64,000 nucleotides of DNA from an uncultured Candidatus Saccharibacteria bacterium. GTDB taxonomy: Bacteria; Patescibacteriota; Saccharimonadia; CAZHVB01. The notes under the pieces were generated by a model that ran no database searches, had not been told where the DNA came from, and worked only from the letters and a program-made list of their open reading frames with translations. The DNA lies in contig CAZRIY010000001.1 in assembly GCA_964600295.1 (NCBI GenBank), positions 91,282 through 155,281 on the forward strand, read 5' to 3'. The position numbers and the translations under genes were made by a program. Below, piece by piece: positions 1 through 39,804 of the stretch. Every line of letters starts with the position of its first letter. Position 1 is the stretch's first letter.

Positions 1-490
1 CGCCAAAGCGATTCCAGACCACTTGGAGGGTAACGTGGACTTTATCGGTTAGGTGACAGGCATAATCACCGGGGGTTAACAAGCCGACACCGACAAAGCC
101 AGCATTGGCACTAACGGTATACAAACCGCTGGCATCTGGAGTACCGCTGTTGGTTACCAGATCACCAGAAGCCAGTTGCCACTGCTCCGGGCTGCCTTGC
201 GAGCGCAGATGGAATTGGTCCAAATTATTACTGGTGTCGGTTTTTAGCCTGGCGCAGAAGCTTTGCCAGCTGGCAGCCTTGTTGCGCAGAGCCGTTAAAC
301 CCTCGGCTTGAGCCTGCAGTAATTGGATGGCTTGACTGCGTTCGCGGGCGCTGCGGCCAAGTTGAAAGGCCTTGCTGCCCAATGTATAGGCACTCAGCAA
401 CACCACTCCGATAATTACGGTGGCAATAATAACTTCTATCAAGGTATCCCCGCGTTGGTTTTGGAGTTTTTTGATCCTAGCTTCTCTCAT
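1..490 (-). CDS. Type IV pilin-like protein (minor pilin/pseudopilin), 3' end truncated by the window edge
   Basis: The minus-strand ORF starts with ATG at 488-490, overlapping the upstream gene's stop (ATGA). My translation begins MREARIKKLQNQRG|DTLIEVIIATVIIGVVLL: a class III signal with Gly at -1, Glu at +5 and a hydrophobic helix. It is absent from the ORF table because it runs off the window. Confidence 0.5.
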   Translation of the reverse strand, partial: MREARIKKLQNQRGDTLIEVIIATVIIGVVLLSAYTLGSKAFQLGRSARERSQAIQLLQAQAEGLTALRNKAASWQSFCARLKTDTSNNLDQFHLRSQGSPEQWQLASGDLVTNSGTPDASGLYTVSANAGFVGVGLLTPGDYACHLTDKVHVTLQVVWNRFG

Positions 491-1131
491 CAGCAAACAT
501 TATTATTGTAATCGAAACTGCGGCTGATTTCGCCAGTCGCAGCGTTGATGATTACCGCAGCGCAGAGGTTATCCGGACTTTTAAAAACCAGGTTAGTTAC
601 ACCCGCATCCGGGTCATCCGGGTTCGAACTGATCGCGTAGTCGATGGGGTTGTTGCTGACGGTATTCATCACATAAACGTTTAGTTGACCGCTGGCTGGA
701 TGACGCACAAAACTAACTACCCGATCGGCACCCGGACACGCGCAATATACCCCCCAGGGAATAGAAGCAGTCACTGGGGTCCCCTCGAGTAATATAAAGT
801 CCAATGAATCATCGGCGATACGTTTAGCAGTGAGAGTGGAAATGGTGTATACAGACAGGTTATTGTCGAATTGCACTGATTTCGCAAAAAAAATCCGCTC
901 ACCTAAAGTATCCGCTCCTCCAGTGGTACTAGTTGTATAGGCGCTATTAACCTCGGTCCGAATGCTCTCTAGACTACTAACCACCCGTTCAATAGCATCA
1001 GAAAAGCGAGTTCTGCGTTGGCTATTGCCAAAACTGCTCAGCAAGCCGATGGCCAGGGCCGATGAGATGGCCAAAACCATGATAACTTCAATTAGCGTAA
1101 ATCCCCGATTTTGGTATGTTTTCCACCTCAT
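490..1131 (-). CDS. Prepilin-type N-terminal cleavage/methylation domain protein (minor pilin)
   Basis: The N-terminus is MRWKTYQNRG|FTLIEVIMVLAISSALAIGLL, a canonical G/FTLIE prepilin motif. The gene sits in the pilus operon directly downstream of pilD. Confidence 0.7.
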   Translation of the reverse strand: MRWKTYQNRGFTLIEVIMVLAISSALAIGLLSSFGNSQRRTRFSDAIERVVSSLESIRTEVNSAYTTSTTGGADTLGERIFFAKSVQFDNNLSVYTISTLTAKRIADDSLDFILLEGTPVTASIPWGVYCACPGADRVVSFVRHPASGQLNVYVMNTVSNNPIDYAISSNPDDPDAGVTNLVFKSPDNLCAAVIINAATGEISRSFDYNNNVC

Positions 1132-1383
1132 ATCTAGGGGAAGTATATCATAAGCACTCTGCGTATTGCCCCCTGTCGCCTAGAGTCGGCTTTTTTACTT
1201 CTAAATCTATCAAAAAAACCCTTAATTATATAATTAGCGCCATAGCGCGCATAATCTATACAACTTCCTGTCTGATGGCAAAACTTCTCCTTTGGCGGGC
1301 TGAGCCTGGCGATTAAAGAGTAAACCCCGTTAGAGGCCGCCCTATCGAAGGCATGGCTACGACCGCTTTGGGAAGATCTGCTT

Positions 1384-2259
1384 CTAACGGGGTAAAAAGA
1401 GGTCGATATAGAGGTTGAATAACTGCTGACCGTGAAGCATGCCGATAATAGTGGCTGCAATCAGGAACGGCCCGAAGGGTATGACGTCCTTGCGGTTGAG
1501 CCGTTTGGCCGCAATCAGTACCAAGCTATAGGTCGCTGCGAGGTTAAAACCGACAAAAAAGGCCACCATACCTCTGTTAGTACCGAGAATCAACCCCATC
1601 AAGAGGGCCAGTTTGACATCGCCACCTCCCATCCAGCGACCGCGGCCCAACCAATGAAGAGCGAAGAAAAACAAACCGGCCAGTGTGGCTGCCAGTAGAT
1701 GGCTGCTGATAACCCCGACCGATCGGTTAATTACCGCACCGCTGATTAAACTTATGAGGGCAATCGCGAACATCGGCCACAAGATTCGATCTGGCAGGAT
1801 CATCCAGCGCAGATCATATAGCGCTAAGATTAATAACCCAGTTAAGAGTAGTAGCCAAAAGCCAAAGCTAAAATACGACCAAGCCCCGCCGAATTCCCAG
1901 AACAGATATGACCAGATAAATGAGCCGGCAGTTAGGGCTTCCACCAGAGGATATTGTTTAGAAATTGGTTTACCGCAGTAACGGCATTTGCCCCGCAGCT
2001 GCAGCCAGCTAAGCAACGGCACTAGATCCTTGACTGCAAGTTGATGCCGGCAATGGGGGCACATTGAGCGGCCAAATAGTAGACGGTAGTCAGCCTGCCT
2101 GCCGGTAGGCAAAGTAGACCGTAGTCGGCTCGTGGACGCAGGTGGTTTTTTTGTAGACTTATGTCTCCCGGCCACTGACTGCTGATGAAGTCGCCAAACC
2201 GCGGCATTGATAAAACTGCCAAAGGCCAAGCCTAAAAATCCCAGTAGAAAAATTATCAT
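1384..2259 (-). CDS. pilD: Prepilin peptidase PilD (A24 family)
   Basis: An N-terminal transmembrane helix is followed by zinc-binding CPHC...CRYC pairs and a multi-TM A24 peptidase core (e.g. GGGDVKL). Its start is coupled to the mazF stop by a 1-nt TAATG overlap. Confidence 0.88.
   Translation of the reverse strand: MIIFLLGFLGLAFGSFINAAVWRLHQQSVAGRHKSTKKPPASTSRLRSTLPTGRQADYRLLFGRSMCPHCRHQLAVKDLVPLLSWLQLRGKCRYCGKPISKQYPLVEALTAGSFIWSYLFWEFGGAWSYFSFGFWLLLLTGLLILALYDLRWMILPDRILWPMFAIALISLISGAVINRSVGVISSHLLAATLAGLFFFALHWLGRGRWMGGGDVKLALLMGLILGTNRGMVAFFVGFNLAATYSLVLIAAKRLNRKDVIPFGPFLIAATIIGMLHGQQLFNLYIDLFLPR
2092..2111. repeat. In-frame copy of the GCCTGCCTRCCGGYAGGCAGGC palindromic element, encoding PTGRQA inside the pilD cytoplasmic loop
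   Basis: The sequence AGCCTGCCTGCCGGTAGGCA is flanked by an imperfect direct repeat, AGTAGACGGTAGTCAGC / AGTAGACCGTAGTCGGC. Confidence 0.6.
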
Positions 2260-2591
2260 TAACCAGTAAACAGCTGCCGTATCGCAGCCAATATCTCCTG
2301 TTTCTTGGAGGCAGTAAGCTGGCCGATGGTGGTTTGAATAATCGAAGCCTCCACAGTAAACAGCTTATCGGGACGCGCAAAACTGCGGATTTGTAAACTT
2401 CCGTTTGAAAAATCTTTATCTGAAATGGGTATGGCAATCTTGCTTGTCAGTTTTTGAGAAGTAATTTGGCACAAACTTAGATTTTCAAATTCAGCTAAAC
2501 CAACCACTATTGCCGGGCGGTTTTTGAACCGCGAAAAATCGGCATAGGGAAAGGCCAACGATACAACGCTACCTACTGTAAATGTGCCCAC
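2259..2591 (-). CDS. mazF: Type II toxin, MazF/PemK family endoribonuclease
   Basis: The 110-aa product has the MazF-like pattern NRPAIVVG...CQITSQ...IPI. It overlaps the upstream AbrB-type antitoxin by 19 nt. Confidence 0.7.
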   Translation of the reverse strand: MGTFTVGSVVSLAFPYADFSRFKNRPAIVVGLAEFENLSLCQITSQKLTSKIAIPISDKDFSNGSLQIRSFARPDKLFTVEASIIQTTIGQLTASKKQEILAAIRQLFTG

Positions 2592-2818
2592 GCTTTATCT
2601 TCTTCCCGACGATTCCAATCATTTAGCGAGTTCAAACTCATGATGTATGTATCATTTAATTTGATCTGGTTTTTTCTGTTAGATTTAGCGGGCGTTATAC
2701 GAATTTCGCCAATACTTACTTCTAACTCCACGTCAGGACCAAGCCCACTAGTCTCCAGAAGCGGCTTAGGAATGCGTATACCTCGAGAATTACCGATAGT
2801 TACAACCTTGGTTCTCAT
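2573..2818 (-). CDS. mazE: Type II antitoxin, AbrB/MazE/SpoVT family
   Basis: The N-terminal VVTIGNSRGIRIPKPLLE swapped-hairpin motif is present, and the gene sits immediately upstream of, and overlapping, the MazF-like toxin. Confidence 0.65.
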   Translation of the reverse strand: MRTKVVTIGNSRGIRIPKPLLETSGLGPDVELEVSIGEIRITPAKSNRKNQIKLNDTYIMSLNSLNDWNRREEDKAWAHLQ

Positions 2819-3000
2819 AGTAATTACATTGTATATACATTAGCTTCAACTGGCAATTGATCTTAACTGAAGGGAATAAAGGTTAGATGTAAGAGACTCG
2901 GATGTTAAAGCTTTGCGACGATTTGTCCCTTAGCTTAGAAAAGAAATACCCCCGCGACAATCTTTCACGGAGGTAAAATCTACAAACGGTTGTCTAACTA

Positions 3001-3507
3001 CTACCGACTATCGATACAGGAACCTTGGCCGCGCTCCTGGTACGTTACAACCGCGAATTGGCGTGCGGTTCCTGGGGTCCGTGTAAATCCGGTTCCACAT
3101 ATCTGAGCCGGGAAGTAGTACATGGTGCCTGCTGTAGGCGCTGTGATTCCACTAAGCGTAGTGTTAACGTTATAGTTTGTGCCGGTGCCCGGGTCTGCCC
3201 AGGTGGCACCACCTGCCAGCATATACTGCGCACGGAAACCGGTCGCACTTGCATCGTTGTATTGGGCTGCAGTCGGGATATTACCGTTGTTATTGCTGGC
3301 AAATTGGTTAACTGCCGCCAGCGTGCGGCTGGCGTCATTCTTGCGCGCGGTATCGCGCCTCGAAGCCTGAGCAGCGCTAACGGCCACAAAGACGATAACG
3401 AAAATTAGCCCGGCAATGGCCAGGACAATCACGATTTCAATCAGGGTAAAGCCTTGATTGCCATCTTTCTTAAACAGCTTCTGGAACCATTCCTTGAGTT
3501 TTTGCAT
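3001..3507 (-). CDS. pilA: Type IV major pilin (PilA-like)
   Basis: An 18-aa leader precedes G|FTLIEIVIVLAIAGLIF. The protein is 168 aa with a Thr/Gly/Asn-rich C-terminus and two Cys, and it lies between pilC and mazE. Confidence 0.75.
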   Translation of the reverse strand: MQKLKEWFQKLFKKDGNQGFTLIEIVIVLAIAGLIFVIVFVAVSAAQASRRDTARKNDASRTLAAVNQFASNNNGNIPTAAQYNDASATGFRAQYMLAGGATWADPGTGTNYNVNTTLSGITAPTAGTMYYFPAQICGTGFTRTPGTARQFAVVTYQERGQGSCIDSR

Positions 3508-3582
3508 TTGATTCGGTCTCCTCCTAAATTCTATATTGCTTATGTTTAATAATATTAGCCTCTACCCCCAACGTCAACCCCG

Positions 3583-4827
3583 TTATTGAGGCGGCGGCGC
3601 GCCACCACCACTGGCTCCGCCGAGATCGAAGTTGATTAGGCCATAGACTGGCAGTAGGATAGCGGCCACAATGACACCGACAGTAACGCCCAAAAATACC
3701 ATCAATATCGGTTCTATAGTGGTAGACATGTTTTTGGTGGCGTTATCCAACTCCTCTTCATAAAACTGAGCGGTTTTGGACATCATAGCGTCGACAGTGC
3801 CGGACTGTTCACCGATTTTTAGCATTTGGGGTACTAGAGCCAGAAAGGTCGGCTCTACTTCCAGCGCGATCGATAGGGCCTTGCCACCCTTCACTTTGTC
3901 GGCTGCTCTTTGCATGGCTTCATCCAGATGAACATTGTTCATAGAACCCCCTACGATGCGCAGCATCTCCAGCATCGGCAGACCGCTGGCCAGTAACACG
4001 CTGCTGGTGCGGCAAAAACGAGCCATATAGAGCTTTTTGAACAGTTTGCCGAAGAGGGGCAATCGTAACTTTAGCCGATCGGCAATCCGTTTGCCGCCAA
4101 GAGTGCGGAAATAACGTATCAAGGCAATACCACCACCAATTAGGATAATCAGAATCAACCACCAAAAGCTCTTCACAAAGTTGGCCACGGCTAGCAGAAT
4201 GGCGGTCAGAAACGGTAAATCTTTGCCCAAATCCTGATAAAGCTGCGAGATTTGGGGCAGGACTGTGGTTAGCATGAATAGCAGTACCAATGTAATCACT
4301 ACCAAGACAATGACGGGGTAAATCATGGCCCCGCGGATTTTGGAAATTAGCGCGTGGTCTTTTTCCTGTTGATCGGCGATACGAGCTAGCGATTTATCCA
4401 AGCTACCCGAAGCCTCACCGGCGGCAATCAGATTAACATAGATGGTGTTGAAAACTTTGGGATGCTTACCTAAGGCATCGGCTAGCGCCGTGCCGCCTTC
4501 GATGTCGGTAATGACCTGATTAACGATCGTCAGCAGCATTTTATTATCAATTTGTTCGCGGACTGTGCGCAGGCTCTGGGCCAAGGGCAGGCCGGCGTTA
4601 ATCAGAGTGGATAACTGACGGCTGAACAGCACTAGTTGCTTGGCGCCGACCCGATTGGTAATAAAACCAAACATGGCACTACCCTTATCTTTAGGCTCTA
4701 TAGTGATTGGAAACAGATCCTGGCTAATTAAGAGCTTGGCGGCTGAGCTCTCGCTATCGGCTTGGACTTCGGCTTTAACCGTCTGACCATCAAGATTATT
4801 CTTGGCGGTGTAAACAAAGGTAATCAT
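3583..4827 (-). CDS. pilC: Type IV pilus assembly platform protein PilC (GspF family)
   Basis: The 414-aa product has two GspF-type repeats with three TM segments and the typical N-terminal MITFVYTAKN...GQTVKAEV. Confidence 0.9.
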   Translation of the reverse strand: MITFVYTAKNNLDGQTVKAEVQADSESSAAKLLISQDLFPITIEPKDKGSAMFGFITNRVGAKQLVLFSRQLSTLINAGLPLAQSLRTVREQIDNKMLLTIVNQVITDIEGGTALADALGKHPKVFNTIYVNLIAAGEASGSLDKSLARIADQQEKDHALISKIRGAMIYPVIVLVVITLVLLFMLTTVLPQISQLYQDLGKDLPFLTAILLAVANFVKSFWWLILIILIGGGIALIRYFRTLGGKRIADRLKLRLPLFGKLFKKLYMARFCRTSSVLLASGLPMLEMLRIVGGSMNNVHLDEAMQRAADKVKGGKALSIALEVEPTFLALVPQMLKIGEQSGTVDAMMSKTAQFYEEELDNATKNMSTTIEPILMVFLGVTVGVIVAAILLPVYGLINFDLGGASGGGAPPPQ

Positions 4828-4952
4828 TTGATTACCTTTTTAAGATACAAACTACAAGATACAAGTAACAAATTTCCCTTGAGCATGTGGGATGTGGGGT
4901 TTGGTGCCTGGTTGTATCCTTGTTTCTTAGTCATTGTTTCTTGCCCTTCGGG

Positions 4953-6026
4953 CTAGCCTCGCATCAGCCGTTCTAGCTCTTCTAGATCGAGCGCGTAATC
5001 TTTGGCTTCTTCGTAAGTAATAACTCCGCTATGGATGAGGGCCACCAAGGCTCGGTCCATTGATTGCATGCCTTTTTCGGCCCCGGTCTGGATTACCGCA
5101 TCCAGTTGATGAGTTTTGGCCTCGCGGATAATATTGCGCACGGCCGAGGTCACCACCAAAACTTCAGTGGCCGGTACTCGCCCGCCGCCGATCATCGGAA
5201 TCAAGCGCTGGGAGCAAACCCCCTGCAGAATAGAAGCCAATTGAACCCGGATTTGCTGCTGCTGGTGGGGCGGAAAGACATCTACCATGCGGTCGATCGA
5301 TTGGGCAGCCGAATTGGTGTGCAGAGTGGCCAGTACTAAGTGGCCAGTCTCAGCAATGGTAATGGCGGCGGCGATAGTTTCTAGATCACGCATCTCGCCA
5401 ATCAGCACTACGTCGGGGTCTTGGCGGAGGCTAGAACGCAGAGCCGAGGCAAAAGAGTAAGTGTCATAGTGGACTTCGCGCTGGACCACCATGGCTTTTT
5501 TGCTTTTATGGGTATATTCGATGGGATCCTCGATGGTAACAATATGAACGGCTTTTTGGTCATTGATCTTATCGATCATGGCGGCCAGCGTTGTGGATTT
5601 ACCGCTACCGGTAGGACCAGTCACCAGTACCAGACCGCGGGGGTACCCCGTAAAGGTTTCGATGACTTTTGGCAGCTTAAGATCTTCAAGGGTACGAATC
5701 TGGTTGGGAATTAGCCGTAGCGCCGCGGCTAGATTGCCACGTTCGTGGAAAGCGTTGACGCGGAAGCGGGCTTCATCACCAAAGGCAAAGGAAAAGTCGA
5801 ATTCTTTGTCCTTGAGCAGCATTTGTTTTTGCTCTTCGTCCAAAATTGAGAAAATTAGTTGTTCAGCAGTCTCCTCTGTTAGGGCAGGTGAATTCTCGAA
5901 CGGAATGAGCTTACCGTCGACCCGCAGGGTTGGCGGTAAACCGACTTGGAGATGAATATCCGAAGCCTTACGATTAACGACTTGTTCTAATAAAACTTCA
6001 ATCCTAGTTGGTCCGGCAGCTGCCAT
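4953..6026 (-). CDS. pilT: Twitching-motility retraction ATPase PilT
   Basis: The 357-aa product has a Walker A (GPTGSGKSTT), Asp and His boxes and a PilT-length C-terminus. Confidence 0.88.
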   Translation of the reverse strand: MAAAGPTRIEVLLEQVVNRKASDIHLQVGLPPTLRVDGKLIPFENSPALTEETAEQLIFSILDEEQKQMLLKDKEFDFSFAFGDEARFRVNAFHERGNLAAALRLIPNQIRTLEDLKLPKVIETFTGYPRGLVLVTGPTGSGKSTTLAAMIDKINDQKAVHIVTIEDPIEYTHKSKKAMVVQREVHYDTYSFASALRSSLRQDPDVVLIGEMRDLETIAAAITIAETGHLVLATLHTNSAAQSIDRMVDVFPPHQQQQIRVQLASILQGVCSQRLIPMIGGGRVPATEVLVVTSAVRNIIREAKTHQLDAVIQTGAEKGMQSMDRALVALIHSGVITYEEAKDYALDLEELERLMRG

Positions 6027-7798
6027 TACGTCCTCGCGTCCGCCGCTACCCGTTCGACTTCATCTAAGGTCGTAAAACCGGTTAGAGCCTTAAGATAACC
6101 GTCTTCTTGCATGGTTAGCATGCCTTCGGCACGGGCTTGAGCTTCCACCTGACCAGAGGTAGCATGTTGGGTTAATAGTTTTTCTAAGCTATCACTCATA
6201 TTAAAAACCTCGAAGACACCTACTCTGCCGCGGTATCCATTTGGGCATTCTTCACTGTCTTTACCCTTAAATAAAGTATAAGCGTTTTGATCGGACAAGG
6301 GCAAGTTACCGTAGCCATATTCTTTAGCCAGGCGGGGAACATCGGCCTGGTTCTTGGGCAGTAATCTACTAACTTTCTTCTTGATGGCTTGGGTTTGGGT
6401 GGGTGTGCTTTGGAGCGTTTCGTGATCTTTACAGATACGCCTAACCAGACGCTGGGCCATGATAGTATTAACGGTCGAAGCAATCAAAAAGGGTTCTATG
6501 CCCATGTCCAACAAGCGGGGCAAAACACCGGCCGCCGAATTGGTGTGCAAGGTTGAGAGTACCAAATGCCCGGTCAGGGCGGCTTGCACCGCCAAGGTGG
6601 CGGTTTCGTTATCGCGGATCTCACCGACAAGTACGATATCGGGGTCTTGGCGCAAGACCGAGCGCAAACCCGAAGCAAAGGTTAAACCCACCGGCGGATT
6701 AATCTGGATCTGGTTAACACCAGAGATTTTGCGTTCCACTGGATCCTCGAGGGTGACGATATTGATGGTTTCGTCTTTAATCATCTGCAAAATGGTATAG
6801 AGTGTGGATGATTTGCCCGAGCCGGTCGGCCCGGTGGACAGAATCATACCGTGAGGTCGTTTGGAGCCCTCTTGCACCAAGGACAGTGAATGACCGCGCA
6901 AGCCAAGGTCGGCTAGGCTCAGATCCTGATCCTCCTTACTGAGCAGCCGCATCACTACCTGCTCACCCCAGACTACTGGAGATATGGCTACCCTAATATC
7001 AATTTCCTTGCTGGCCGAGGAAATATGGAATTGGCCGTCTTGGGGAACTCGGTGTTCATCAATCTTCATTGCAGACAGAATTTTGACCCGCGATATCAGC
7101 GCCGGTTCGCTGCCTTTGGGTAAGGTCATAATTTCGCGCAACAGGCCGTCGACTCGGACTCGGATGCGAACTTCGTGCTCGGTGGGCTCGATGTGGACAT
7201 CTGAGGCACCGGCCTGGACGGCATAGTCCAAAATGGCCTTGAGCGCCCGGGTAATCGGCGAATCTTGCACCAAGTTGGCTACGGCTTGAGCACTAGTGGT
7301 ACTATCCAAGTCTTTGGGCGTTAAATCGATTCCGCTTATTACGCTGCGCATATCTCCGACATCGGGTTTATAGTGGGCCAGGATACGCTCAATACCGACC
7401 TGGGAGGCCATAAAGACCACAACCGGTCGGCCAATTTTACCGGAAATATAATCAATCGCCTGGATATTGGTAGGATCGAGCATTCCCACCGCCAGCTTGC
7501 CCTCCATATCACCCAATGGTACGGCCTTGTACTGTTGGGCCAAATCTATGGGTAGGGACTTCAAGATCTCCGGTTTGACTGAGGCCTTTTGGAGATTAAC
7601 GTAGGGCACGTTGGTGGCCCTAGCAATCAGCTTGGTTAGCTCCTCGGGATCTATCAGTTTTTTTTCGGTAACTAGGGTCAACAAGGACTTATCGGACTTG
7701 GCGGCCTCGACTTTTAGTTGCTCAAGCTGTGCCTTAGTAACGGCTTTCTTTTCAACCAACCAATCTTCGACTCGGCTCTGGCTCTCGACGGACAGCAC
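6026..7798 (-). CDS. pilB: Type IV pilus extension ATPase PilB (GspE family)
   Basis: The 590-aa product has an N-terminal GSPII_E_N-like domain, a Walker A (GPTGSGKSST) and a tetracysteine region. It uses a GTG start with a GGAGG RBS 9 nt upstream. Confidence 0.9.
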   Translation of the reverse strand: MLSVESQSRVEDWLVEKKAVTKAQLEQLKVEAAKSDKSLLTLVTEKKLIDPEELTKLIARATNVPYVNLQKASVKPEILKSLPIDLAQQYKAVPLGDMEGKLAVGMLDPTNIQAIDYISGKIGRPVVVFMASQVGIERILAHYKPDVGDMRSVISGIDLTPKDLDSTTSAQAVANLVQDSPITRALKAILDYAVQAGASDVHIEPTEHEVRIRVRVDGLLREIMTLPKGSEPALISRVKILSAMKIDEHRVPQDGQFHISSASKEIDIRVAISPVVWGEQVVMRLLSKEDQDLSLADLGLRGHSLSLVQEGSKRPHGMILSTGPTGSGKSSTLYTILQMIKDETINIVTLEDPVERKISGVNQIQINPPVGLTFASGLRSVLRQDPDIVLVGEIRDNETATLAVQAALTGHLVLSTLHTNSAAGVLPRLLDMGIEPFLIASTVNTIMAQRLVRRICKDHETLQSTPTQTQAIKKKVSRLLPKNQADVPRLAKEYGYGNLPLSDQNAYTLFKGKDSEECPNGYRGRVGVFEVFNMSDSLEKLLTQHATSGQVEAQARAEGMLTMQEDGYLKALTGFTTLDEVERVAADART

Positions 7799-7818
7799 CT
7801 AGTCCAAACCTCCAGTTT

Positions 7819-7890
<72 letters not shown>

Positions 7891-7897
7891 TTATGTC

Positions 7898-8164
7898 TTA
7901 TTCGGGGCGGAAAGGATTAGTATTGCCAAAACCCTGACTGAAATCAAAGCTCGGAGAGGAAAAACTGGCGGCTTGGAAACGGTTGTTCCGACCGAGCAGG
8001 ATCTGGCGGGCGGCATCATCAAAATTCGGGTCGATTGGCTGGACAACCTCAATGCTGGCCGTGCGGGCTTTGCCACCGCGGCCAAAACGGCTGACTAGGA
8101 AGGAGCCCAGCGCAACCAGCACAATGCCCAGCACCACTAGAGCCAAAATATCTTTAGTTTTCAT
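7898..8164 (-). CDS. Small membrane-anchored hypothetical protein in the pilus operon (position expected for PilP)
   Basis: The 88-aa product has one N-terminal TM segment (ILALVVLGIVLVALGSFLV). It overlaps the pilO-like stop by 11 nt and is therefore operonic. Confidence 0.4.
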   Translation of the reverse strand: MKTKDILALVVLGIVLVALGSFLVSRFGRGGKARTASIEVVQPIDPNFDDAARQILLGRNNRFQAASFSSPSFDFSQGFGNTNPFRPE

Positions 8165-8789
8165 TTATTTCCTCCGTTTGATCACCAATTTGGGTTAGCG
8201 GCTGCCAATAAGTAGTAAGGGTGACGGATAGGGTTAGCGATGGTTCGCTGCCGCTAAAAGTTAAGGTGTTAAGCCGGATCGGCCGCTTGGAATTCTCCAG
8301 GTTGGTCAGCAGTTGTTGCAACGAGACGTACGTACCGTTGGCGCTTAGCTGAAATACCACCTCTTGGGAGGTGGCTACGCCGCTAGCCATTGGCTGCTCG
8401 CCAGCAACAGCTACTTGAGGGGAGAGCGATTGTAGTTGGACGCCAACTAGCGTGGCGGCGGCTTCTAGTTCGGCTGTCAGCCCTGCGTAATCAGGCGAAT
8501 TCGGTAGCGCCCTAAAGATATCAAAGACCGGCGGACCATTGTCTTCCAGAAACTTAAAGTTCTCCTGAAGTTTGGGTATAGCAGCCACGTTTTCCTCCAG
8601 GGTGTTTTTGGCCGCGTTTTTGCGCGAAATCACCTTATTATTAAAGCCGATATCGCCCAGCCAAGTCTTGGACAGCACAATGCTAATAGCTACCACCAGG
8701 GTGGTCAGGCTCATCAGACCAGCAATTAATCGGTTATTAGTGAGGGTTACTTTGGGATGTAGCAAATGCATCTTCTTCAGCTTAGCCAT
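8154..8789 (-). CDS. pilO: PilO-like pilus assembly protein
   Basis: The 211-aa product has a single N-terminal TM segment followed by a coiled-coil. It sits in the pilM-pilN-pilO position, overlapping the pilN stop. Confidence 0.55.
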   Translation of the reverse strand: MAKLKKMHLLHPKVTLTNNRLIAGLMSLTTLVVAISIVLSKTWLGDIGFNNKVISRKNAAKNTLEENVAAIPKLQENFKFLEDNGPPVFDIFRALPNSPDYAGLTAELEAAATLVGVQLQSLSPQVAVAGEQPMASGVATSQEVVFQLSANGTYVSLQQLLTNLENSKRPIRLNTLTFSGSEPSLTLSVTLTTYWQPLTQIGDQTEEINEN

Positions 8790-9387
8790 TGGGTTCTCCG
8801 TCGATTAGCCTGGCATCAAAGCTGGCCTTGATGGTGAAGTTGACCTCGGAGCCAGACGGTCCACTGGCATTTTCCAGTACCACGCTGGTGAAATAGCCCC
8901 TGATTTGGGGATCATCTTCAACCCGATTGGGATCTTGCAAATCACCAGCAACTAGTAAGGCCCGATAAAGCCTGTCAACTCCGGCATAGCTGGGAGAAAC
9001 TCCGGATAGGGTTAGGCCGCCGCTGGTATCTATTTCGATGTTAGATAACCGGATCTCGGCGGGCAAAACGCTGGGCAAGAAGGCCATTAGCTCTGATACT
9101 ACTAGCCGCTGTTCATAGAGGGATGGCAAAGAGGATAAATGATCTTTAACCGTTAACATGGTGGTGATATTGGGGGTACTCTGCAGTGTGGCTTTGTGCT
9201 GATCAATCCGGTCCTGGGTGCGATTCAGCAATAAGGCTTGGCTGCCTTTGATGGCCAATAACAACACCGGAACGCCGATGGCCACAGCCATAATGATGCT
9301 AGAGATAACAATCGATAACTTGCGGGCGCGTTGGGCGCGCAGACGTACCTGTTTACTGTCTGGTAGCAAGTTTACTTGCTTAACCAT
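8782..9387 (-). CDS. pilN: PilN-like pilus assembly protein
   Basis: The product starts MVKQVNLLPD, the conserved PilN N-terminal motif, then has one TM segment. It lies downstream of pilM. Confidence 0.7.
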   Translation of the reverse strand: MVKQVNLLPDSKQVRLRAQRARKLSIVISSIIMAVAIGVPVLLLAIKGSQALLLNRTQDRIDQHKATLQSTPNITTMLTVKDHLSSLPSLYEQRLVVSELMAFLPSVLPAEIRLSNIEIDTSGGLTLSGVSPSYAGVDRLYRALLVAGDLQDPNRVEDDPQIRGYFTSVVLENASGPSGSEVNFTIKASFDARLIDGEPNG

Positions 9388-9573
9388 GTATCACCTCCCT
9401 GCGGTCGGTGCAATTTCTAATTTCTAAATGGTTCGGCAGGCTCTCCATCCTGAGCACAGGCGAAGGACAAGCACCAATTCCCAATAAACCAACCCCTAAA
9501 CAGTTTGAAATTTGGGATTTTATAAATTGGGATTTGTTTAGGATTTCGGATTTAGACATTAGAGTTTCCTTCA

Positions 9574-10629
9574 TCATTGTCGCTCCCTTAGCGCCAAGCC
9601 GCAAGCTACGGCAAACTGGTTGGACAACTCGGCCAGCTGCCCGGATATGCCGGATCGGCTGCCAATCTTAGCCCACGCATCCCCAATTTCCACCGGCAAA
9701 CCAACGCTGTTGGCCAAATGGGCTGGAAATTCCGGCATCATACCCGCCTTGCCGGTCAATATAATTTTGCTCACTTTGGTGCCTTTGTAATGACCTTCAA
9801 AAAACTTGGTGGATTTATCAATTTCCGACATCAGGGTATCAACGCTTCCCTTGATGGCTTTTCTAACTTGGCTCTCCATCTTTTGAGCTAGACCGAACTT
9901 ATAAACGAATTGGTAGGCCTGATCGGGTTCTAGATTCAGCCCTTGGGCGGCGGCCTTAACAAAATTATTACCGCCGACTGGGATGGAACGAATCATTTTG
10001 AGCGAATGGCCAGCCACTGTTACCAAATCGGTGGCGGTTTCGCCAACGTCCAGCACCGTCACAGCACCGGCTTCTTGGGGTTTAACCAGAGCGCGGGCCA
10101 AAGCGATGGCATCGGGTTCCAGCGCCAAGACCTCTAGATCGGCGGCTTCCAGCACAGCGAGTGTGCGCTCCGACAGACCAATTGGCACGGCTACAATTAG
10201 GACTTCTTGCTGTTTGCCATCTGCGGATTCACCGGCTAGCATCCAGTCCAATTTAACTTTATCTAGCGCCATCGGCACATGCTGTTCGGCTTGGTAGCGA
10301 ATGCCCTTTTCTAGCTCCGAGGGCGCCATTTTGGGTAGACTAATCAATGCCGAGAAAACCTTGGCCGAGGGCAGGCCGGAGACCACATTCTTGGTGGTTA
10401 CCCGGCTATCACTAATGAGTTTTTTGATAGCTTCGACCACCGATTGGCGATCTACTGGGGAATCGCTGGCCATGACTTTGGCTTCCATGGGTACCCAACC
10501 ATAGGTTACCAACTGAGCGCTAGCGCCACTCTTTCTGACTTGAACTAAACGAATACCTGAGGAACCAATATCTAAACCAATTATATTATTGTCGGTTTTA
10601 AACAACGCCATTATCTCCAAGTTTATCAT
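9574..10629 (-). CDS. pilM: Type IV pilus assembly protein PilM (actin-like ATPase fold)
   Basis: The 351-aa product contains IIGLDIGSSGIRLVQV and two actin-like subdomains. A GGAG RBS precedes the start. Confidence 0.85.
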   Translation of the reverse strand: MINLEIMALFKTDNNIIGLDIGSSGIRLVQVRKSGASAQLVTYGWVPMEAKVMASDSPVDRQSVVEAIKKLISDSRVTTKNVVSGLPSAKVFSALISLPKMAPSELEKGIRYQAEQHVPMALDKVKLDWMLAGESADGKQQEVLIVAVPIGLSERTLAVLEAADLEVLALEPDAIALARALVKPQEAGAVTVLDVGETATDLVTVAGHSLKMIRSIPVGGNNFVKAAAQGLNLEPDQAYQFVYKFGLAQKMESQVRKAIKGSVDTLMSEIDKSTKFFEGHYKGTKVSKIILTGKAGMMPEFPAHLANSVGLPVEIGDAWAKIGSRSGISGQLAELSNQFAVACGLALRERQ

Positions 10630-10873
10630 AAGGGCTTTATTAGAGGCTAGCGGTTAGAAATTAGAGCCTAGAGAATAGACATTAAAGGTTAGATGCAGAC
10701 TTTACTAGTAAAATCTTGCCAGCATTTTTGCTAGAGGCTAGAGGTTAGTAGCATTTATTGAGCTCGAGAAGATCGTTATAAACCATTCAATAATTTGTGC
10801 GGCTTGAGGCCTGGATTTGCTAATTTTTCAAAAATACATCCATCCATGAATTCTTACATTTAAATTTAATTCT

Positions 10874-11775: not shown

Positions 11776-14700
11776 CTAGAACACCGGCGGGCGTTCAGAT
11801 TGAGAACGGATCTGGGTGGTAACGCTACCCAATCCAAGGGGTGGGCGCAACAGTAGTTGGGGTACGTAGTTAACGCACTCGGCTGCTTTGTTGCCCACTG
11901 GGCAATCCACGCCGTCAACTCCGGTGCGTACATCGCCAACCGTGCGGCGAAACTGAAAACTGCTGGCCACCAGGGCTCCTTGGACGGTCAAGGGTTGGCC
12001 GCAAGCGGCAGCACCCACGGCAGTGCCAATAGCTATGCCAGTCGGGTCTTGGCAGGTGTTGATAACGCCGCTGCTGCCCGTGCTGCCAGCATAATAAATA
12101 CCGTAGAGGTTTGTGACTATGGGCGAGATATTGATACCCCCGCGGGAAATTACGCCGAAAGAGGGAATGGTATCCCGCCTGAAAGGAAAGCTAGCTGAGA
12201 TATTGCCAACAATTTGTACCGTACCCCCCACTACGAACGTAGTTCTTTTTCCAACTGGTAGGATGCCGCCTAAAATCGTCAGATCACCGTTATATTTGAA
12301 GATACCATCAGGTAGACTGGGGTCGCTAAGATTAACTACACCTGGCGCTGCGAATGGACCTGGATAATCGGCTACAGTGCTGTCAGGAGCGAGGTAGCGG
12401 GCAGCCAGATCCAGTCGGCAGACGCGGCCATAGCCGCCGTGGGGCGAGCTGCGACTGCCAAATTTTAGGCTCAAATCAGTAGGTGAAGTTACAGAGCCGG
12501 CGGAACCAAAGTTATTGATATTGGCCCCGGCTGAAACTACAAAGCTGGCCCTGGAGCCGCGTAGGTCTTGGACACGGCCGCGGACGCTACCGCTACCGGG
12601 GACCAGGCAGGGTGCGCCAAAGTTGGCCCCGGCTTGGACGCTGCCACCCAGGGTGGATAGAACCGGTTTGCGAGAGATTACTACTTTTAGGCACCGAGGT
12701 GTAGGGTCTATGTATTCGGCATTGCTATCGCTATTAGGACTGGCAAAGGCCTGAAAGCAAATGGCCCCAATGTCATCGGAGTCTACAGCGCCATTGAAGT
12801 TGCTATCTAAATAGGTAGGGGCCGTAGGGCTGACGGTAAAGGTGAAAGACACATCTCTTCTACCGCCCGCGGGTAAGTCCGGATAGTGCCAGTGATAACA
12901 AGGGGCCCTGGGGCCACAATCTAGATTATAACCAAAGCTATCGGCCGGCGGCGAAGAAGTGTTGTTGGGTGTCAATGGTGCGGTGGTATACGCGCTGTTT
13001 TGATTCTGCACCCGTAAATACACCGGTAGAGAAGTTGATGCTCCTAAATTTTCTAGCCGTGCATTTATGGTGTAGGGGTTGCCCGGCTCCACCGTGGTAA
13101 AGATGGTTGAGCCATTGGGCGCCAGTCCTTCGGGCAATACATCGCCCTGATTATCAAACGGGGGTGGTAGGGGTGTGGGATAAGCATAGGGTGTGCCGTA
13201 GGCATAGGGTGTGCCGTAGGCATAGGGTGTGCCGTAGGGATAGGGTGTGCCGTAGGGATAGGGTGTGCCGTAGGCATAGGGTGTGCCGTAGACAATGGGT
13301 TCCAGAAAAATGCGGTCTTTGACATTAGGATCCCCATAATTCTCTGACTGGTAAGCACCAAAATAGCTAGAAAAATACGCACCCAGATCATCAATCGACC
13401 TGGTGCGACCGTTTTCGAGTGGTAGATTGCGATAAGCTATAGAATTAAAATTTGGCGCACCGATATCGAAATTCCAGGTAACAAAGCAGTTTAAGCCAGT
13501 GCCGCCGGCATTACCGGAAGGTTCTCCCACCTTAAACCAGTTTGCACTGCGATAGATAGCAGCACCATATTTGCCGCAGGGGTCCGTATTACCTGGAGGT
13601 GGCCCACCTTGATTCGGCGTAACCCAAAAATCATAGATCGCTGGATTTGGCCATACGCCGCTACCAACCCACGCGGTTACGGCCGCCATGGGGTGCTGCG
13701 TACAATGGTCGGGCCCGTGAGTAGCTTTAACTTTGGCTGGCAGCCAAAAGCTCTGCAGCTTGCTTGAGATCTGCTTGAAGATGCGGCTGGTTGTTCGCAG
13801 GGCCTGCCCAACTAATTCCTTGGCTGCCTTTTGTCGCTCTTGGACTAGATATTCCTTTATATAAATTTTGGTGGTCTTTTCCTTTTTGACTGATTCTAGA
13901 AAACCCCTCCAATCTGAATATTGTCCGGTTGTCTTTGCAAGTAACCGGTAAATGGCGTAATAGCCACCGTCGGAGCGAATTAACCCTGTGTGAGAACCAA
14001 TTTCTTGAAGCTGGGCCATTTTTTCCCATTCCTTCATATCCATTAAGTGCAGCGCGGCAGTCTTGGCATTCATACCGGTATCGCCTACCCTATCTACCAC
14101 AAACGAACTCGATTGAGGATCTTTTTGAATCTGCTCAATCTTGCGCGTTATTTCGTCTTGAGAGGCACCATTCTCAAATAGCGGCAGCAGGTCGGATTCC
14201 ACTTTTTGTTTGGCTACAGAATCCCATTCGTCATCGGGATGGGCATCGGAAGCACGCATATCCCATCGGACATAAACACCAAAAAGCGAGCGGCTATCGA
14301 TTAGCACGCTTTCTAACTTGACTCTGAATAGTTGGCTGCGCTCGATGCGCTTTATCAACGCGGCGTCCCAATTCCGACCACTCTGTAAATTAACCTTGGC
14401 CAGGAAAGCGGCTTCGTTGCCGTCGGCCTTGATTAATTCCTGGTAGCGTTGTTCAACTTCTTCGGTGCTAACCGCAATCCCATGTTTAGTGGCTTCATCC
14501 TCTAGAGCCTTTTCCATAATCAGGAAATCTAGAGCATGGAGGTTCAGGGCGAAGAATGGACCGGTATCCTGGTCGTCTTCGGTGCCGGCCAAAAAGCTAA
14601 GTTTAGGCTTGAAGGCTTCATATTCGGCCACGGTAATCTCTTTGCCTCGAACCTCGGCCGCGATCCCGGCTCTCAGTTTGGGGTTCGTAAAGAAATTGCT

Positions 14701-14832
14701 AAGACGAGGCAAAACTGTGTAAGTTGAAAAAATTAGAGCCGCTAATGCCAGGACAAAAATAGCTGCAATAATTCCCAGGCGTAATGGGTAGGCAAGCTTG
14801 CTAAATTTTACCCTTAGTTTTGAAGGCCGCAT
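11776..14832 (-). CDS. Large surface protein with a SurA/PpiD-like N-terminal chaperone-like region, a (YGTPY[AP])n repeat and Cys-containing beta-rich C-terminal domains
   Basis: The 1018-aa product has an N-terminal signal-anchor. Residues ~60-350 are alpha-helical and resemble the SurA N-terminus. The central and C-terminal parts are Gly/Asn/Ser/Thr-rich with paired Cys. Confidence 0.65.
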   Translation of the reverse strand: MRPSKLRVKFSKLAYPLRLGIIAAIFVLALAALIFSTYTVLPRLSNFFTNPKLRAGIAAEVRGKEITVAEYEAFKPKLSFLAGTEDDQDTGPFFALNLHALDFLIMEKALEDEATKHGIAVSTEEVEQRYQELIKADGNEAAFLAKVNLQSGRNWDAALIKRIERSQLFRVKLESVLIDSRSLFGVYVRWDMRASDAHPDDEWDSVAKQKVESDLLPLFENGASQDEITRKIEQIQKDPQSSSFVVDRVGDTGMNAKTAALHLMDMKEWEKMAQLQEIGSHTGLIRSDGGYYAIYRLLAKTTGQYSDWRGFLESVKKEKTTKIYIKEYLVQERQKAAKELVGQALRTTSRIFKQISSKLQSFWLPAKVKATHGPDHCTQHPMAAVTAWVGSGVWPNPAIYDFWVTPNQGGPPPGNTDPCGKYGAAIYRSANWFKVGEPSGNAGGTGLNCFVTWNFDIGAPNFNSIAYRNLPLENGRTRSIDDLGAYFSSYFGAYQSENYGDPNVKDRIFLEPIVYGTPYAYGTPYPYGTPYPYGTPYAYGTPYAYGTPYAYPTPLPPPFDNQGDVLPEGLAPNGSTIFTTVEPGNPYTINARLENLGASTSLPVYLRVQNQNSAYTTAPLTPNNTSSPPADSFGYNLDCGPRAPCYHWHYPDLPAGGRRDVSFTFTVSPTAPTYLDSNFNGAVDSDDIGAICFQAFASPNSDSNAEYIDPTPRCLKVVISRKPVLSTLGGSVQAGANFGAPCLVPGSGSVRGRVQDLRGSRASFVVSAGANINNFGSAGSVTSPTDLSLKFGSRSSPHGGYGRVCRLDLAARYLAPDSTVADYPGPFAAPGVVNLSDPSLPDGIFKYNGDLTILGGILPVGKRTTFVVGGTVQIVGNISASFPFRRDTIPSFGVISRGGINISPIVTNLYGIYYAGSTGSSGVINTCQDPTGIAIGTAVGAAACGQPLTVQGALVASSFQFRRTVGDVRTGVDGVDCPVGNKAAECVNYVPQLLLRPPLGLGSVTTQIRSQSERPPVF
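13184..13291. repeat. Near-perfect 18-bp tandem repeat (6 units) inside the surface-protein gene
   Basis: The unit GCATAGGGTGTGCCGTAG (variant GGATAGGGTGTGCCGTAG) is repeated six times and encodes YGTPYA/YGTPYP on the minus strand. Confidence 0.9.
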
Positions 14833-39173: not shown

Positions 39174-39548
39174 CTAACCAGACTTCTTTACAGGATCGCG
39201 TAATTCGAGACCACTGATCCCCTTAAAATCAGCTGTATTATGCGTCCAAAGTTCTAGATTATGCGCTAGAGCCGTAGCGGCGATCACGGCGTCTGGAGTT
39301 TTGATTTTATGGGTTTTGCGCAAGCGAATTGTTGCTTCTGCAATTGGCTCTGTTAGGGGGAGTAGTTCAATCAGTGCTAAAAATTGCCGAATACTTTGCC
39401 CTTCTTTGCGACCAATATCACGATAGGCAAGAGCTTCTATTTTAGTGATGATGGAAGCAGCTAACTCCTGGTCTTCAAGTTTAGATACTAGCAAACCGCT
39501 TGGATCTTGAACCGCATAAATAATGATGTTAGCGTCGAGTAAGATCAC
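39174..39548 (-). CDS. vapC: Type II toxin VapC (PIN domain)
   Basis: The PIN N-terminus is VILLDANIIIYAV. A probable GTG start at 39548 overlaps the vapB stop; the ORF-table ATG at 39629 would overlap vapB by 70 nt. Confidence 0.65.
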   Translation of the reverse strand: MILLDANIIIYAVQDPSGLLVSKLEDQELAASIITKIEALAYRDIGRKEGQSIRQFLALIELLPLTEPIAEATIRLRKTHKIKTPDAVIAATALAHNLELWTHNTADFKGISGLELRDPVKKSG

Positions 39549-39558
39549 GCTGTTTGCG

Positions 39559-39804
39559 CTACCGCGTATCCCATTCGGAGCGGAGCTTGCGCTGCCAAGC
39601 CACCGGATCTTTGATCTCAGCAAAAGCACCCATCTTGGCTAGCTCTCGTAAGACTGCAATAGCTTTCTTGGTATCTGGCCGGCTCTTCTTGATAGACACT
39701 TCTACGTCATCGCCAGTCATAATCCCAAGCCGATTCAAATAGGCTCCACTAAGTCTTACTCCCCGGGAATTTCCAATCTTAATTACCTTGGCCTTAACTG
39801 TCAT
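39559..39804 (-). CDS. vapB: Type II antitoxin VapB (AbrB/SpoVT-type)
   Basis: The product contains VIKIGNSRGVRLSGAYLNRLGIMTGDDVEVSI. Confidence 0.65.
   Translation of the reverse strand: MTVKAKVIKIGNSRGVRLSGAYLNRLGIMTGDDVEVSIKKSRPDTKKAIAVLRELAKMGAFAEIKDPVAWQRKLRSEWDTR

Follow-up and report, generated by a model that had tools for sequence, protein, structure and literature searches.

The type IV pilus (T4P) designated T4P-1 is described as essential in cultivated Saccharibacteria, where it drives twitching motility, and the T4P-1 locus of TM7x (Nanosynbacter lyticus) encodes PilM/N/O, PilB, PilT, PilC, PilA, PilD and several minor pilins, as far as the available part of the account goes (PMC11623550). 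In Listeria monocytogenes and Staphylococcus aureus, the toxin-antitoxin (TA) pair mazEF lies directly upstream of the sigB operon and is co-transcribed with it (PMC5308263). Here we describe a 64,000-nt stretch of DNA from an uncultured Candidatus Saccharibacteria bacterium (the window), in which a mazEF pair sits between the major pilin gene pilA and the prepilin peptidase gene pilD of a pilus gene cluster on the minus strand of positions 1-10629. Judged by the available part of the TM7x account, both loci hold the same components in one place and neither includes a secretin (PMC11623550). The window differs in carrying mazEF between pilA and pilD, where it appears to replace the pilD promoter; no mention of a toxin was found in the available part of the TM7x T4P-1 account (PMC11623550).

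The arrangement resembles mazEF-sigB in that a chromosomal pair lies on the same strand as, and immediately upstream of, host genes. It differs in its host gene, a prepilin peptidase gene that lacks a promoter motif and whose start overlaps the toxin stop. The downstream operon of the mazEF-sigB species retains its own promoters. In E. coli, a third, non-TA gene, mazG, is located downstream of mazF in the same transcription unit, and it has functional ties to MazF as well as to the stringent response. To our knowledge, pilD has no link to TA biology, and a search of a limited collection of literature on TA systems together with prepilin peptidases or type IV pili did not turn up any report of pilD being coupled to a TA pair.

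Gene identities were based on Pfam and NCBIfam domain searches; both TA proteins score over their curated cutoffs. The elements at the center of the analysis are as follows.

2260-2921, minus strand: mazEF cassette, about 0.66 kb (left border approximate, right border at the pilD ATG)
2573-2818, minus strand: mazE, AbrB/SpoVT-type antitoxin, 81 amino acids (aa) (PF04014, 31.5 bits against a cutoff of 24.7)
2259-2591, minus strand: mazF, PemK/MazF toxin, 110 aa, GTG start (PF02452, 37.9 bits against a cutoff of 23.1, E = 2.2e-9, residues 7-108)
2828-2856, minus strand: putative mazE promoter TTGCCA-N17-TACAAT (scan 10/12; conserved in other cassettes)
2820-2839, minus strand: operator-like palindromes TGTATATACA (2839-2830) and GTAATTAC (2827-2820), covering the -10 box and the predicted start of transcription
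1384-2259, minus strand: pilD, prepilin peptidase / N-methyltransferase, 291 aa (A24_N_bact and Peptidase_A24)
2937-2975, minus strand: terminator-like hairpin and U-tract 3' of pilA (11-bp stem, T-run; dG -17.8 kcal/mol, z = -3.3)
1142-1150, minus strand: extended -10 box TGATATACT, 10 nt 5' of the first minor-pilin ATG (shared by the window, L002 and L089)

By its sequence, the pair looks like a MazEF system, with a PemK/MazF toxin and an AbrB-type antitoxin gene just upstream. Residues K23-x-R25-P26 and C41-Q-I-T44-S45 of MazF are invariant in 34 family members and align with the KRP and C-P-I-T of PDB 7bye_B, although this match, obtained with the family profile, is weak (E = 0.008); these residues (K23, R25, P26, C41-S45) are putatively catalytic, and MazF is predicted to be toxic. 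A single-sequence search of PDB sequences gave no homologue of solved structure at E <= 0.01, and the family-profile search gave only the one weak match, so MazF appears very divergent from solved structures. PilD carries the hallmarks of MEROPS family A24, with C67/C70/C92/C95, D149 and G211-G-G-D214 invariant in 30 homologues.

A preliminary description of this DNA, made from the sequence, had reported that mazE overlaps mazF by 19 nt and that the mazF stop overlaps the pilD ATG, and both junctions are real. The 19-nt overlap is identical in 59 of 75 family members. The toxin/peptidase junction reads GGT TAA TG ATA (TAATG, a 1-nt overlap) and is conserved in the related locus L002 (PilD 73-74% identical), which has the same succession of mazE (81 aa), mazF (110 aa) and pilD with overlaps as in the window. 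In L002, mazF starts with ATG exactly where the window has GTG, which, together with the widely shared overlap, makes the GTG start credible.

The start of pilD was compared across 82 loci (mainly L009-L088, plus L003, L004 and L089-L091; the start lies at about position 6001 in full-length loci). An extended -10 box, TGnTAnnnT (typically TGTGCTACTAT), ends 6-10 nt before the pilD ATG, mostly 7 nt, in 63 of the 82 loci, and a TAnnnT box is found at this distance in 78. In shuffled sequences, the extended box turns up in 2.9% of cases. A Shine-Dalgarno-like motif was present in just 6 of the 82 loci. Given the fixed spacing of the -10 box and the scarcity of Shine-Dalgarno motifs, pilD would normally be transcribed leaderless from a minimal promoter.

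Neither TGnTAnnnT nor TAnnnT precedes pilD in the window or in L002, which are the only pilD loci with mazEF; in both, the last codons of mazF occupy the usual position of the -10 box. On the coding strand of the window, no TGnTAnnnT was found from the pilA stop to the pilD start, the sole match in 2200-3010 beginning inside the pilD start codon. No Shine-Dalgarno motif precedes pilD in the window, and the scan found no terminator-like site between mazF and pilD. As the native promoter motif is gone, with the mazF 3' end in its place, pilD is predicted to be carried on a transcript from the mazE promoter. Its translation would require coupling, since an internal cistron cannot use a leaderless start and a Shine-Dalgarno motif is lacking. 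The same strand, the 1-nt overlap, the missing -10 box and the lack of an intervening terminator-like site are all compatible with a shared transcript of the mazEF-sigB type. The predicted transcription unit is mazE-mazF-pilD, because the minor-pilin genes keep their own TGATATACT box, which is conserved inside an otherwise poorly conserved spacer of the window, L002 and L089 and is predicted to provide them with a separate promoter.

We consider it probable that mazEF arrived as a selfish, autoregulated cassette, landed at the 5' end of pilD, displaced the pilD promoter and became entrenched. The proposal builds on observed features, namely gene content, junctions, autonomy of the cassette, the missing pilD promoter motif, a restricted phylogenetic distribution and purifying selection. 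A mobile cassette of about 0.66 kb would have inserted between the pilA terminator and pilD, bringing its own sigma-70-type promoter with palindromes over the -10 box and start, the usual place of AbrB-type autorepression. The native extended -10 promoter of pilD would have been lost where the mazF 3' end now sits. As the third cistron of the mazEF transcript, pilD would be expressed from the autoregulated mazE promoter and from any read-through of the pilA terminator, and it would be translated by ribosomes that terminate on mazF and then reinitiate at TAATG, while the downstream minor pilins would keep their own promoter. Deletion of the cassette would also abolish expression of pilD, and PilD is needed to mature every pilin; this dependence of pilD would make the cassette difficult to shed. 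The statements on transcription, coupling, autoregulation, toxicity and entrenchment are inferred from sequence.

The promoter comparison also bears on another explanation, in which mazEF is an independent island that merely adjoins pilD, with pilD expressed via an unrecognised promoter in mazF or by read-through from pilA and with TAATG of no consequence. Compact genomes often have stop/start overlaps, promoters are poorly predicted in these organisms, the pilA terminator may leak and, at about 2 TA pairs per 64 kb here, some will adjoin any given gene. Mere adjacency nevertheless leaves unexplained why a box kept at a fixed distance from the ATG in nearly all pilD loci is missing from precisely the two with mazEF. 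It would also have to accommodate a pilD that has neither a Shine-Dalgarno motif nor an extended -10 box upstream of it in the cassette, nor a terminator-like site separating it from mazF; as an internal cistron cannot start leaderless, some coupling would be required. We regard this explanation as improbable.

The cassette itself appears portable and self-contained, with its own conserved promoter/operator, rather than an integral part of the pilus operon. The promoter/operator block is the only well-conserved stretch of the pilA-mazE spacer between the window and L002, and it also precedes mazE in L006 and L007/8, where the cassette has unrelated genes beside it. In a metagenomic set of cassettes of the family, 58 of 64 have the arrangement TTGAC(A)-N17-TA(C/T)AAT-GTAATTAC-N-ATG. 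MazE would be expected to autorepress the mazE promoter via the palindromes. The mazE ATG follows the -10 box by 9 nt in the window, so the mazE mRNA is predicted to be leaderless or nearly so. According to the available part of the relevant study, Mycobacterium tuberculosis likewise has leaderless TA transcripts, the first gene of the operon beginning on the transcription start or no more than a few nucleotides from it (PMC8485053). The likeness lies in the 9-nt distance of mazE from the -10 box in the 58 of 64 cassettes; the M. tuberculosis operons belong to another phylum and other TA families, and the leaderless state is predicted here from spacing. The cassette genes also differ from their neighbors in GC content at third codon positions (0.39-0.42 for mazEF vs 0.55-0.58 for the pil genes).

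Further, the cassette family lives mostly in other company. The closest MazF relatives (about 65% identical) adjoin unrelated genes (APH, HAD hydrolase) with the 19-nt overlap kept, and pilD was found downstream in none of the 63 evaluable cassettes elsewhere; a general association of the MazF family with pilD was rejected on this ground. In 8 of the 63 (L140, L117/L168, L170, L142 and others of the L092-L171 set), a same-strand host gene follows within -3 to +36 nt, for example those for RecR, a YchF-like GTPase or a glycosyltransferase. As these host genes are unrelated, tight fusion seems to be a common trait of the cassette where genomes are compact.

The same observations bear on whether the coupling is adaptive, so that stress-triggered degradation of MazE would de-repress the mazE promoter and raise PilD, or MazF would reshape expression of the pilus genes. 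In both versions, the TA switch would bear on pilus maturation, comparable to the link of mazEF with sigB in Firmicutes. Such a role would agree with the absence of a promoter motif for pilD, with the precedent of mazEF co-transcribed with the sigB operon, and with the maintenance of the junction and of both TA genes under purifying selection in two species whose synonymous sites are saturated. The operator motif, however, occurs only once in the window, with no further copies of the MazE operator, so control of other pil promoters by MazE is not predicted. The family is otherwise unlinked to pilD, and eight cassettes abut unrelated host genes equally tightly.

A second kind of TA pair beside pilD can be read in favor of such a role. 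In two loci, vapBC (an AbrB-type antitoxin with a PIN toxin) lies directly upstream of pilD (L012, 2253-2908; L067, 4439-5945). These pairs share with the window the AbrB-type antitoxin, a mazEF-like promoter/operator block (TTGACA-N17-TACAAT, GTATATACAAT.GTAATTAC) and a toxin gene that reads toward pilD, here ending 9-22 nt before it. They differ in that the toxin is a PIN-domain protein and not MazF, and in that the stretch from the toxin stop to the ATG still holds an extended -10 box for pilD. L067 has two tandem TA pairs, of which the one next to pilD carries the block; they lie in a 1.6-kb insert with a 48-nt direct repeat of the pilD 5' end (71% identical) on its flanks. Between L012 and L067, VapB is 64%, VapC 58% and PilD 62% identical, and the two may represent one event.

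The density of TA genes in 886 kb of related loci (5 PIN and 5 AbrB among 150 small open reading frames (ORFs), with about 1058 ORFs after overlap removal) gives a rough chance expectation of about 0.35-0.6 TA pairs upstream of pilD per 78 loci, and 2 of 78 were seen. We claim no enrichment and no recurrent TA hot spot upstream of pilD, as this number is near chance and may stem from one event. The near-chance number and the promoter that pilD keeps in the vapBC cases weigh against adaptive coupling. The mazEF-pilD arrangement is moreover limited to two lineages and missing from a relative with 78% PilD identity. A dedicated regulatory role is not favored, since only two lineages are involved, the operator is single and abutment is equally tight at unrelated genes, and we hold it to be unlikely.

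The window contains a second TA-like pair (39174-39804, minus strand), in which the gene for a 151-aa PIN-domain protein is preceded by an overlapping 81-aa ORF and ends 4 nt before a PQ-loop/SWEET-like gene.

Among the loci compared, the mazEF-pilD arrangement appears confined to two lineages, those of the window and L002, and more than 85 other loci lack it. In L003, L004, L090 and L091 (PilD 54-59% identical to the window), pilA is followed directly by pilD without mazEF. In L089 (PilD 78% identical), the pilD ATG directly follows a terminator U-tail, ATTTCTTTTCTAGGATAAGACAAT, as in an empty site; this tail matches that of the pilA terminator in the window and thereby places the left border of the cassette near 2921. 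No target-site duplication was found around the cassette of the window. In the 80 Saccharimonadia genomes, pilC is followed by pilA and, after about 60-100 nt, by pilD and the minor pilins, and this mazEF was found within 6 kb of pilD in none of their 80 loci. The PilD of the window is only 38-48% identical to that of the sampled Saccharimonadia genomes, and the nearest named relative of the organism is labelled Microgenomates.

The preliminary description had called for a comparison of synteny with Saccharibacteria, which finds that the pilus layout matches T4P-1 and that mazEF is lineage-specific. It had named absence of mazEF from the orthologous site of all relatives as the outcome that would speak against its view, and this is nearly what was found: the pair is absent from L003, L004, L089-L091 and the 80 Saccharimonadia genomes and present only in L002. 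Its view that the TA pair is embedded in the operon and no independent island holds in part. The pair is embedded with pilD physically and by the logic of the sequence, but it is a portable cassette with its own promoter-like site, located downstream of the pilA terminator. Overall, the observation was partly confirmed and the interpretation partly supported.

Between the window and L002, MazE is 79%, MazF 78%, PilD 73-74% and PilA 48% identical, and the ratios of nonsynonymous to synonymous substitution (dN/dS) are 0.057 for mazE and 0.14 for mazF. These identities and low ratios indicate purifying selection, and we conclude that mazEF has been kept functional since the two lineages split.

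Several points weigh against an insertion followed by entrenchment. The apparent empty site of L089 is seen on a contig that has just 24 nt ahead of pilD. In the PilD tree, which approaches a trichotomy (74-78% identity), the window nominally groups with L089, a locus that lacks mazEF. Synonymous divergence (pS) is lower in mazF (0.51) than in pilD and pilC (0.68-0.73), which could reflect later exchange between lineages or extra constraint. These data would fit a single gain followed by loss in L089, a poorly resolved tree or a later lateral transfer of the cassette. The consensus promoter scan gave 14 matches, compared with 13.5 in shuffled sequence, and the case for the mazE promoter rests on conservation and not on the scan, because the two counts are so close. 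In L002, the mazE ATG lies 32 nt from the conserved -10 box instead of 9, so a leaderless mazE is not universal. A non-canonical promoter inside mazF could drive pilD, and all statements on expression draw on sequence motifs.

The pilA-pilD gap also receives other DNA. In L075, it holds an IS200-like (Y1 transposase) gene at 5283-5924 with the hairpin CAAGGAGACTCCCTG..CAGGGAGTCTCCTTG on both flanks.

Some TA systems abort phage infection and pili serve as phage receptors, which is the sole basis for a further explanation, namely that the pair was placed at the pilus locus as an abortive-infection module. The gap's acceptance of mobile DNA such as the IS200-like element would fit with this. On the other hand, neither MazE and MazF nor VapB and VapC of L012 match any PADLOC defence model, no other defence genes are located nearby in the window, and the cassette family is scattered over unrelated contexts. 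We therefore consider a defensive placement very improbable.

The remaining features of the pilus cluster are listed below.

9574-10629, minus strand: pilM, 351 aa (PilM_2, E = 3e-41)
8782-9387, minus strand: pilN, 201 aa (PilN, E = 4e-4, under the Pfam cutoff; position as that of a 203-aa gene with a weak PilN match in L004)
8154-8789, minus strand: pilO, 211 aa (PilO, E = 9e-6, over the cutoff; 8-nt overlap with pilN)
7898-8164, minus strand: 88-aa single-pass membrane protein, accessory gene of the pilus cluster (no Pfam or NCBIfam match)
6026-7798, minus strand: pilB, assembly ATPase, 590 aa (T2SSE, E = 2e-121, and MshEN)
4953-6026, minus strand: pilT, retraction ATPase, 357 aa (T2SSE, E = 2e-52; 1-nt overlap with pilB)
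3583-4827, minus strand: pilC, platform protein, 414 aa (two T2SSF domains, E = 3e-59)
3549-3577, minus strand: putative pilA promoter-like site TTGACG-17-TATTAT (consensus scan 10/12), followed by a leader containing AGGAGGAG
3001-3507, minus strand: pilA, major pilin, 168 aa, cleavage context G|FTLIE (N_methyl, E = 4e-7; TIGR02532)
490-1131, minus strand: minor pilin, 213 aa, G|FTLIE (N_methyl, E = 7e-7)
1-490, minus strand: minor pilin, G|DTLIE, 182 aa in full, last 19 codons past the window edge (N_methyl, E = 3e-6; weak TIGR02523, PilV)

The ORFs and their Pfam matches give the minus-strand order pilM-N-O, the 88-aa gene, pilB-T-C-A, mazE-mazF, pilD and minor pilins. The gene calls, coordinates and order of the preliminary description were borne out for all ORFs, with Pfam support that is weak for PilN. 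All parts of a type IVa-like pilus are present, namely PilB, PilT, PilC, PilM/N/O (PilN being under the cutoff and placed by position), class III pilins and the prepilin peptidase, and the cluster belongs to the Saccharibacteria T4P-1 type. The lack of PilQ also stood: no Secretin family was found among the best 25 of 76 families listed for 39 large ORFs of the window, nor among the small ORFs, although a weak match could hide. Hairpins equivalent to the pilA terminator of the window follow pilA in L002 and L003 as well, that is, in three lineages.

Other claims had to be corrected. The locus had been called complete with two minor pilins, but the window ends inside the gene for the G|D pilin. 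L001, an identical metagenomic contig that reaches beyond the left edge, contains the rest of this pilin (from which its full length was taken, to 7911), two further pilin-like genes (247 and 352 aa) and a gene for a XerC/D-like recombinase, which brings the minor pilins to four. Overlapping stops and starts had been said to occur throughout; just 6 of the 12 junctions overlap, the remaining 6 being gaps of 75 to about 250 nt. Of the two pilin cleavage contexts described as unusual, G|FTLIE is canonical, while the G|D site (QRG|DTLIEV) is atypical yet conserved: 61 of 80 Saccharimonadia loci have exactly one such pilin downstream of pilD. Among the pilins of these loci, the position behind the cleaved glycine is taken by F (183 pilins), D (62), Y (42), L (11), E (3) or V (1). 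The pattern of the G|D pilin is R/S-G|D-T-I/L-I/V-E, with a weak PilV-like match. Aspartate as the mature N-terminus would set this pilin apart from canonical N-methyl-Phe pilins.

The 88-aa protein does lie where PilP had been expected, between pilO and pilB, but it belongs to a separate conserved family and is not a detectable PilP. No PilP domain was found with Pfam or NCBIfam and no N-terminal Cys for a lipobox, and the protein consists of just a transmembrane helix and about 55 residues. It is 56% identical to the product of an 85-aa gene at the same place in L004 (4974-5231). Of 51 Saccharimonadia loci, 47 have an ORF of 50-130 aa whose end lies <=60 nt from the pilB start, and almost all encode homologous 77-85-aa membrane proteins that share a C-terminal motif (family pattern MKQKDI-TM-...NPT..I.IG..N..PF). 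This family of about 85 aa may represent an unrecognised component of the pilus machinery.

Several spacers of the cluster have features of their own. The spacer between pilD and the minor pilins (window 1132-1383, L002 3261-3453, L089 865-1052) measures about 190-250 nt, compared with 29 nt in L003, and includes a palindrome (GCGCTATAGCGC-like) that is conserved and lies about 85 nt ahead of the -10 box of the minor pilins; the palindrome is present also in L089, which lacks mazEF. The 99-nt spacer between the 88-aa gene and pilB carries two neighboring heptamer arrays (7823-7890; on the coding strand, (ATGCAAA)x~5 followed by (CTTTCTA)x~4), which could be a slippage-prone or regulatory element. 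The pilM-pilN spacer (9388-9573) is 186 nt long and AT-rich with a local hairpin, and the same two genes overlap in L004. A structured RNA or repeat element in this spacer was rejected, as the spacer does not fold significantly (z = -1.3) and is unrepeated in the window; an Rfam scan of the window returned nothing but one tRNA.

Directly upstream of pilM, about 21-nt repeats (CTAGCCTCTA-like units, 2.6 copies) occupy 10639-10693 and extend up to 10760; they may be sites for a regulator of the cluster. The gene directly upstream of pilM (11776-14832, minus strand) encodes a 1018-aa protein with a SurA_N-like N-terminal domain. It contains six tandem 18-nt repeats at 13184-13291 encoding YGTPYA/YGTPYP units, and an 804-aa ORF takes the same position in L004. 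The 1018-aa protein may be a pilus-associated surface protein.

Taken as a whole, the locus probably represents a lineage-restricted selfish element wired to a host gene and not a new kind of system, and the general understanding of TA systems or of pili is unchanged. For the annotation of candidate phyla radiation (CPR) genomes, it yields a class-wide promoter signature of leaderless type for pilD, the membrane protein of about 85 aa and the G|D minor pilin. A broader and more speculative reading, to which we give a rather small chance, is that TA cassettes with strong leaderless promoters act in streamlined CPR genomes as portable promoters that displace those of essential genes and become undeletable, with the pilA-pilD gap as a recurrent landing site and mazEF-pilD as the most advanced capture. 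Addiction would then be enforced via transcription and translation, and not by toxin stability alone. If the predicted wiring is true, all pilin maturation in this organism would hang on a TA-controlled promoter, and the locus would offer a clear case from nature in which a selfish cassette became fixed in a host operon through replacement of the host promoter.

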